Below the pieces are notes generated by a model that ran no database searches, was not told where the DNA came from, and saw only the letters and a list, made by a program, of their open reading frames with translations. Shown here in pieces: positions 59,538 through 61,251 of a stretch of DNA of 64,000 bases. The stretch is taken from the NCBI RefSeq assembly GCF_058153355.1, contig NZ_CM177019.1; one strand, given 5' to 3'. Positions within the stretch are counted from its first letter, which is position 1. Each line of letters starts with the position of its first letter. Made by a program: the position numbers and the translations under genes.

Positions 59538-60452
59538 ATGAAAGCCACGTCGGAAGAACTCGCCATTTTTGTTTCGGTCGTAGAAAGCGGCAGCTTTAGC
59601 CGGGCAGCGGAACAATTAGGGCAAGCAAACTCAGCGGTAAGCCGGGCAGTGAAAAAGCTGGAGATGAAACTTGGCATTAGCCTGCTTAATCGGACCACGC
59701 GACAACTTAGCCTGACGGAAGAAGGCGAGCGTTATTTTCGTCGCGTACAGTCAATTTTGCAGGAGATGGCAGCGGCAGAATCAGAAATTATGGAGACGCG
59801 TAATACACCGCGTGGACTGTTGCGCATCGATGCCGCAACTCCAGTGGTGCTGCACTTTCTGATGCCGTTGATTAAGCCTTTCCGTGAACGCTATCCGGAA
59901 GTCACTTTATCACTAGTCTCCTCCGAAACGATTATTAATTTGATCGAAAGAAAAGTGGATGTCGCGATACGCGCCGGTACGTTAACGGATTCCAGCTTAC
60001 GTGCCAGGCCGTTATTTAACAGTTATCGAAAAATTATAGCCTCCCCCGATTATATTTCCCGCTATGGGAAGCCAGAAACGCTCGACGATTTAAAGCAACA
60101 TGTTTGCCTGGGATTCACTGAACCCGCTTCCCTCAATACCTGGCCGATAGCCTGTAGTGATGGACAATTACATGAGGTAAAGTACGGTTTGTCATCCAAT
60201 AGTGGGGAAACACTGAAACAGCTTTGCCTGAGTGGCAACGGGATTGCGTGTTTGTCCGACTACATGATCGACAGAGAAATCGCTCGCGGAGAATTGGTGG
60301 AGTTAATGGCAGATAAAGTGTTGCCAGTGGAAATGCCATTCAGTGCAGTCTATTACAGCGACCGTGCGGTAAGTACGCGCATCCGGGCTTTTATCGATTT
60401 CCTTAGCGAGCATGTAAAAACAGCTCCCAGAGGAGCTGTCAGAGAGGCTTAA
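59538..60452 (+). CDS. yafC: LysR-family transcriptional regulator YafC
   Basis: 304 aa, N-terminal LysR HTH. Confidence 0.85.
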
Positions 60453-61251
60453 TCCCATTCAGGAGCCAGACCTGCCGGGCTAACCAGGCGGTCGTTGCAA
60501 TCCAGTGCGGCGATCGCTTTTTTATCTTCGGCATCAAGCTGTAAATTTTGTGCCTTAAGATTACTCTCCAGGTTTTCACGTCTAGTAGAAGAAGGAATTA
60601 CTGAGTAACCTTCCCCCATAGCCACGCCAGAATCACTTGTGCCGGAGTCGCATTGTGTTTAGCTGCAATACGAGCAATAACCTCATCTTTCAGGGCCTTC
60701 CCATATGCCAGCGTCATATAGGAAGTAATATGGATGCCGTGCTGTTTAGCCCAATCGACTACTTTACGGTTTTGCAGATAAGGAGAGAGTTCAATCTGGT
60801 TGGTAGCGATATTTTCAGCGCCAACAGCAGCAATCGCTTTTTCCATCAATGGGATCGTGAAGTTGGAAATACCGATCTCACGCGTCAGACCTTGTTTTTT
60901 CGCTTCCAGCAGCGCCTGCATAAACTCTTCAACAGAGACTTCATCGTTTGGTGACGGCCAGTGGATTAGCGTCAGATCAACATAATCGGTACGCAATTTT
61001 TGCAGGCTCTCTTTCAGACTTTGGGTCAATTTATCTTTGCTGAGATTTTCAATCCAGATTTTAGTGGTGATGTAGAGTTCATTACGTGGCACGCCACTTT
61101 CTGCAATCGCCTGACCTACTGCGGCTTCGTTATCATAGATTTGTGCGGTATCAATTGCGCGATAACCAAGTTCAAGCGCCGTTTTCACAGATGAAATAAC
61201 AACGTCGTCTTTCAGACGAAAAGTACCTAAACCAAATGCAGGGATAGCCAT
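60449..61251 (-). pseudogene. dkgB: 2,5-diketo-D-gluconate reductase B (aldo-keto reductase) with 1-bp deletion frameshift
   Basis: ORF 60598..61251 matches DkgB for 211 residues then ends ...[10 protein letters not shown]; the -1 frame continues [22 protein letters not shown]...[11 protein letters not shown] to a stop at 60449; span 803 nt = 3n+2. Confidence 0.65.

Follow-up and report, generated by a model that had tools for sequence, protein, structure and literature searches.

Introduction

A gene that is readable only in two frames raises two questions: whether the break is present in the organism or only in the assembly, and, if it is present, whether a working enzyme can still be made. 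Both questions are raised by the dkgB locus (60449–61251, minus strand) of the 64,000-nucleotide stretch of DNA analysed here, referred to below as the window. The gene occupies 803 nt with a broken frame. An initial annotation ascribed the break to the loss of a single G in a G run, and left the choice between genuine gene decay and a systematic sequencing artefact. Our comparisons with related loci, draft assemblies and sequencing runs show that the dkgB frameshift is genuine and not an assembly artefact, a reading to which we assign a probability of about 0.9. We describe the lesion and its predicted effect on the protein, the distribution of the allele, and the alternative explanations of its origin and expression.

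Identity and genomic context of dkgB

The window gene corresponds to E. coli DkgB (YafB; 2,5-didehydrogluconate reductase B), which uses NADPH to reduce 2,5-didehydrogluconate, methylglyoxal and glyoxal and is a member of the aldo-keto reductase (AKR) superfamily (PF00248) with its own NCBIfam equivalog, NF008377. It is 96–98% identical to E. coli DkgB, is found at the same locus and encodes the same catalytic tetrad. In contrast to E. coli DkgB, its product has 217 residues rather than 267, carries the substitution P77Q, and is without the segment aligned to PKSVRRER of the structure 1A80. The score of the 217-aa ORF on NF008377 is 422 bits (cut-off 327), and the match covers profile positions 1–212 of 267. 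A separate 58-aa ORF at the 3′ end of the gene covers profile positions 211–267 with E=3.9e-26.

On its 3′ side, dkgB faces the convergent gene yafC (59538–60452, plus strand), which encodes a LysR-type regulator. This gene is intact, with an ORF of 304 aa that is 98% identical to annotated YafC over the full length, and the stop codons of yafC and dkgB share 4 bp, an overlap also present in other E. coli. Directly upstream of dkgB is the tRNA-Asp gene (61417–61490, minus strand) at the end of an rRNA operon, recognized from Rfam matches to tRNA, 5S and 23S RNA. The order rrn–tRNA-Asp–dkgB–yafC is common to the window and to E. coli EC42405 and MFDS1022581. Scanning for promoters and terminators around dkgB gave nothing above shuffle expectation.

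The deletion and the two reading frames

When the window dkgB (803 nt) is aligned pairwise with its counterpart in E. coli EC42405 (804 nt), a single gap is seen. Both this alignment and a check of the junction place the deletion at 60622–60623, where the gene strand (minus) has GG and all intact relatives have GGG. The gene strand GCG TGG GCT ATG is changed to GCG TGG CTA TGG, corresponding to CCC reduced to CC on the plus strand. The missing base may be any of the three G residues, between which the alignment does not distinguish. The frame is shifted from codon 211, and the first changed residue is A211L. In the ORF list, the 5′ part of the gene (60598–61251, minus strand) consists of 217 codons followed by the stop TAA at 60598–60600, and its translation comprises native DkgB residues 1–210 followed by seven out-of-frame residues, LWGKVTQ.

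The 3′ remnant (60449–60622, minus strand) is found in the other frame and encodes native residues 211–267, with the first base of the A211 codon gone. It forms the second HSP of a tblastn search, with 96.5% identity to residues 211–267 of intact DkgB and no stop codon. The 58-aa ORF mentioned above (60449–60625) overlaps the 217-aa ORF in this other frame, the only one in which the last 57 native residues, including the cofactor-binding segment, can be read. A GGGGG run (60613–60617, minus strand) is located 5 nt downstream of the lesion and is the same in intact relatives. No other site ahead of the dkgB stop would allow the frame to be regained by −1 slippage or by a compensating +1 insertion.

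The initial annotation was thus right that one G has been deleted and the conserved AKR C-terminus cut off, as seen from the single gap in the alignment and the two NF008377 pieces, and right that this C-terminus is still readable in another frame. It had located the lesion at about 60618–60626; the deletion does lie within this interval, in the 3-G run and not in the 5-G run at 60613–60617. Its estimate that the shift occurs at roughly codon 212 was near the mark, the first altered codon being 211.

Besides the frameshift, dkgB carries a second clone-derived change. At position 61022 (minus strand), the window has T where all five of the related loci with listed differences (L001, L003, L004, L006 and L009) have G, which converts CCA to CAA and gives the substitution P77Q, private to the clone. 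In the alignment to solved structures, position 77 is occupied by alanine in the PDB homologues and shows no conservation.

Predicted consequences for the protein

The DkgB sequence of an intact relative was aligned to solved structures for residue mapping. The best matches are 3UP8, a putative 2,5-DKG reductase B (E=1e-62), followed by 1A80, 1HW6 and 1M9H, all of Corynebacterium 2,5-DKG reductase A, and by 1MZR of E. coli DkgA. The catalytic tetrad of D34, Y39, K64 and H97 is in the retained part of the protein. These residues are aligned to chain positions 44, 49, 74 and 107 of 1A80, which we take to be D45, Y50, K75 and H108 in the published numbering. The lost DkgB residues 220–227 (PSSTRREN) align to PKSVRRER of 1A80, and the cofactor-binding segment of the remnant aligns to FPKSVRRERLEENL of 1A80. 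The AKR segment corresponding to PKSVRRER holds the 2′-phosphate of NADPH. Within the 1A80 segment, K232 and R238 are the positions that were mutated for cofactor specificity in going from 1A80 to 1M9H (PMC4580623).

The window dkgB does not provide the full (α/β)8 domain of ~267 aa, with the NADPH 2′-phosphate segment, in one frame. The truncated DkgB is predicted to lack a key cofactor-binding element as well as the strand and helices that complete the barrel. Because the lost segment aligns to the strand and helix that bind the NADPH 2′-phosphate in 2,5-diketogluconate reductases, the 217-aa product is most likely inactive. Judged from its sequence, the locus is a dkgB pseudogene and not a functional member of the DkgB family, since the frame breaks at codon 211 and the residues aligned to PKSVRRER are present only out of frame.

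We read the change as a recent loss-of-function mutation. One G was lost from the GGG at the W210 and A211 codons, and translation would then continue for seven codons out of frame before meeting the stop. The product would keep the catalytic tetrad and yet, most likely, misfold or fail to bind the cofactor. The allele is fixed in a single clone that belongs to a rare E. coli lineage, the nearest sampled relatives being without it, and the loss is probably tolerated through the overlapping aldo-keto reductases and the glyoxalases of E. coli. Transcription of dkgB may persist, since neither the promoter region nor the 3′ remnant is damaged.

Distribution of the allele

Relatives were gathered by look-up of the exact YafC and MltD proteins of the window, and the junction motif was examined in 21 related loci. 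It reads GG in 4 of them and GGG in the other 17. The four GG loci represent two sources only, GCA_043012465.1 and SRR8656992, each of which contributed two overlapping sequences. The 17 GGG relatives, at 96.3–99.7% DNA identity to the window, all have an intact DkgB of 267 aa; a comparison with dkgB from related strains had been suggested in the initial annotation, and this is its outcome.

The complete genomes were searched with a 52-nt junction probe, built so that the intact allele cannot give a 28-mer seed. The probe found no match to the deletion junction in 5,426 complete RefSeq E. coli genomes, nor any among the GTDB species representatives. In the same set, 5,319 of the 5,426 genomes align over at least 80% of dkgB, a number that measures alignment coverage and not the intactness of the frame in each genome. 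The comparisons indicate that the deletion allele is confined to one clone and is recent. Phase variation was considered as well and rejected, the 3-base run being too short and the same slip being present in 0 of 5,426 genomes.

The background of the clone is itself uncommon. None of the 5,426 complete RefSeq E. coli genomes is above 98.5% identity over 53000–61500 or above 97.7% over 1–19000, and because no complete RefSeq genome comes closer than these values, the window is assigned to a rare E. coli lineage without a close complete genome in that RefSeq set. Draft assemblies and SRA runs at 99.7–100% identity to the window do exist.

Two further C-terminal truncations of dkgB are found in other E. 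coli. One allele (P0002), on a contig of 4.8 Mb, encodes a DkgB of 230 aa in which the frame shifts after N227, and the other (P0003), seen on 5 contigs, encodes a DkgB of 237 aa ending at L237. Like the window allele, both occur in E. coli genomes that are otherwise normal, and on long contigs. They differ from it in the lesion itself, in the codon affected and in the allelic background (K-12-like IPSL and KRKN variants), and neither has the deletion at 60622–60623.

Neutral or selected loss of DkgB

Of the nine AKRs known from E. coli, YqhE/DkgA, YafB/DkgB, YghZ, YeaE and YajO, five in all, reduce glyoxal or methylglyoxal (PMC5297802). Given these nine enzymes and the other truncated dkgB alleles, the frameshift looks like a near-neutral, sporadic loss of a redundant enzyme. 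Over-expressed YafB leads to glyoxal resistance (PMC5297802). Loss of YafB may not be strictly neutral, since the enzyme has been described as a major glyoxal reductase (PMC5297802).

It could also be argued that selection favoured the loss of DkgB in the clone, with a saving of NADPH or the avoidance of a harmful side reaction as a conceivable benefit. Both clone-derived changes in dkgB, the frameshift and P77Q, alter the protein, and dkgB has been truncated independently elsewhere in E. coli, as such selection would have it. However, a test of selection would need more than two events, the nearest relatives are intact, and the particular lesion does not recur, its junction being found in 0 of 5,426 complete genomes. 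The published benefit, moreover, comes from over-expression of DkgB and not from its loss (PMC5297802). Selection for the loss is therefore considered very unlikely, and a near-neutral loss remains the preferred reading.

Possible read-through of the frameshift

A different possibility is that the gene is leaky. A −1 slip, either of the ribosome on U GGG GGA or of RNA polymerase, would give a full-length DkgB that differs only by A211L and M212W, and dkgB would then be weakened, not dead. Slippage by −1 within GGGGG (60613–60617) would recover the native frame exactly, ahead of the stop at 60598–60600. The 3′ remnant is free of stops and damaging changes, and the region upstream of dkgB shows no difference from an intact relative. 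However, an intact remnant is expected anyway from a recent lesion, and the zero frame, TGG CTA TGG GGG AAG GTT ACT CAG TAA, contains no heptamer of the X XXY YYZ type. The 93 nt downstream have a minimum free energy of −17.9 kcal/mol against a shuffle mean of −14.2 (z = −1.34), and 18 of 200 shuffles fold as well. The G5 run and the sequence downstream of it are unchanged in intact relatives, with nothing evolved around the shift. The frameshift itself is present only in sequences that are 100% identical to the window, leaving no conservation signal. We consider such leaky expression highly improbable. If it were true, dkgB of the clone would be strongly down-tuned and easily revertible.

The window dkgB resembles genes with programmed −1 frameshifting, such as dnaX and those of IS3-family transposases, in that two overlapping frames together encode one protein, with a G run just ahead of the zero-frame stop. 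It differs from them in having no heptamer, no significant structure and no conservation beyond one clone. Programmed frameshifting was rejected on the absence of a slippery heptamer and of significant downstream structure. Independent translation of the 3′ ORF was also rejected, there being no Shine-Dalgarno-like sequence before the GTG/ATG at 60625 and 60619.

Reproducibility of the deletion

The exact 217-aa product of the window is also encoded by a Logan contig, SRR8656992_324, which was assembled from SRA run SRR8656992 and is present as the same contig in 3 samples. It matches the window with 100% identity over 5,845 bp and over its full 8,203 bp, deletion included, and it ends at two tRNA-Asp copies, as expected for k-mer assembly of accurate reads. 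The deletion is also carried by contig DAXYJU010000063.1 of the NCBI draft GCA_043012465.1, which is 100% identical over 9,765 bp. Compared to the read-based contigs, the window has 0 differences over 45879–61509 (15.6 kb). Compared to the 99.7% relatives, it has two further indels, at 57616 and 58446, both intergenic, which makes three indels in 5 kb in all. The matching assemblies could be repeat sequencing of a single strain, perhaps including the read set of the window itself; even then, an artefact of assembly or of long-read homopolymer calling would be excluded, but spread among isolates would not be shown.

The integrity of the other genes was evaluated with E. coli MFDS1022581, the closest complete genome here. 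About 70 of its annotated genes were translated and searched against the window, in which ~52 are present. Only two of the ~52, tssM and dkgB, are split into two frames, and the ~50 others are full length. The gene tssM (46439–49865, plus strand) encodes the type VI secretion membrane subunit and has an 8-bp deletion after 49261, where AATCCACG of the reference tssM is missing. There is no homopolymer and no microhomology at this site. Exact look-up of the N-terminal TssM fragment, taken from the reference start codon, returned no record, and the neighbouring VasL protein was used instead to fetch tssM-bearing assemblies. The tssM deletion is found as well in GCA_015332025.1, with 100% identity to the window over 9.4 kb, and in the Logan assembly of SRR28786219, with 100% identity over 7.3 kb.

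A homopolymer under-call in the window assembly, with GGG and an intact dkgB in the true genome, is suggested by the loss of 1 bp within a run of identical bases and by the second frameshifted gene in the same window, but it is extremely unlikely in view of a dkgB run just 3 bases long, the identical contigs of SRR8656992 and GCA_043012465.1, their agreement with the window throughout 45879–61509, a tssM lesion of 8 bp that is itself reproduced, and the absence of any excess of homopolymer frameshifts among the nearby genes. The artefact is unsupported because independent assemblies built from reads reproduce the dkgB deletion at the contig level. The two homopolymer-associated frameshifts counted in the initial annotation do not stand, tssM having lost 8 bp outside any homopolymer and the dkgB run having only 3 G. 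A systematic sequencing artefact is not supported, given the assemblies identical over 5.8–9.8 kb, deletion included, and a frameshift in just 2 of ~52 genes. Between the two alternatives of the initial annotation, genuine gene decay is favoured.

Type VI secretion genes and other features of the window

The rest of the T6SS cluster (32104–51734) is full length. Because tssM is broken, the T6SS is probably non-functional in the clone. A VgrG gene (28682–30718, minus strand) is followed by five ORFs of 200–433 aa (24047–28660) that have no NCBIfam match. This cargo/immunity region (24047–30718, minus strand) differs from the set of Tle1, DUF3304 and Tae4 found at the same place in MFDS1022581.

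A group II intron (19553–23505, minus strand) was recognized by Rfam matches to domains D1–D4 at 23388–23505 and to the 3′ domain at 19553–19628. Its reverse transcriptase/maturase gene, ltrA, is at about 19633–21105. Between the 5′ RNA domains of the intron and ltrA there is an IS21 element, with istA at 21951–23123 and istB at 21154–21954, and the group II intron appears to be interrupted by IS21.

At the other end of the window (1–9009), the Flag-2 (lateral flagella) genes from fliF to flhA are full length, with 98–100% protein identity to the reference, and after them there is a hicA/hicB toxin-antitoxin pair at 8385–9009. A yafL-like ORF of an NlpC/P60 peptidase (9035–9844, minus strand) reaches further upstream, from a TTG, than its alignment to the reference YafL, of which the first 23 residues are unaligned. 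The N-terminus of this ORF may have diverged, or its start codon may not be that of the reference. Two REP-type naRNA4 matches are located at 1792–1868 and 12287–12364.

Implications

The dkgB frameshift is ordinary biology. The gene should be annotated as a true pseudogene and the frameshift should not be "corrected". The assembly around dkgB can be trusted, given zero differences over 15.6 kb. Together, the dkgB deletion and the 8-bp deletion in tssM provide a pair of markers by which the clone may be followed in surveillance data. For the organism, the loss removes one of the five AKRs that reduce glyoxal or methylglyoxal. The redundancy among these enzymes makes a strong phenotype unlikely, and the clone may be slightly more sensitive to glyoxal.
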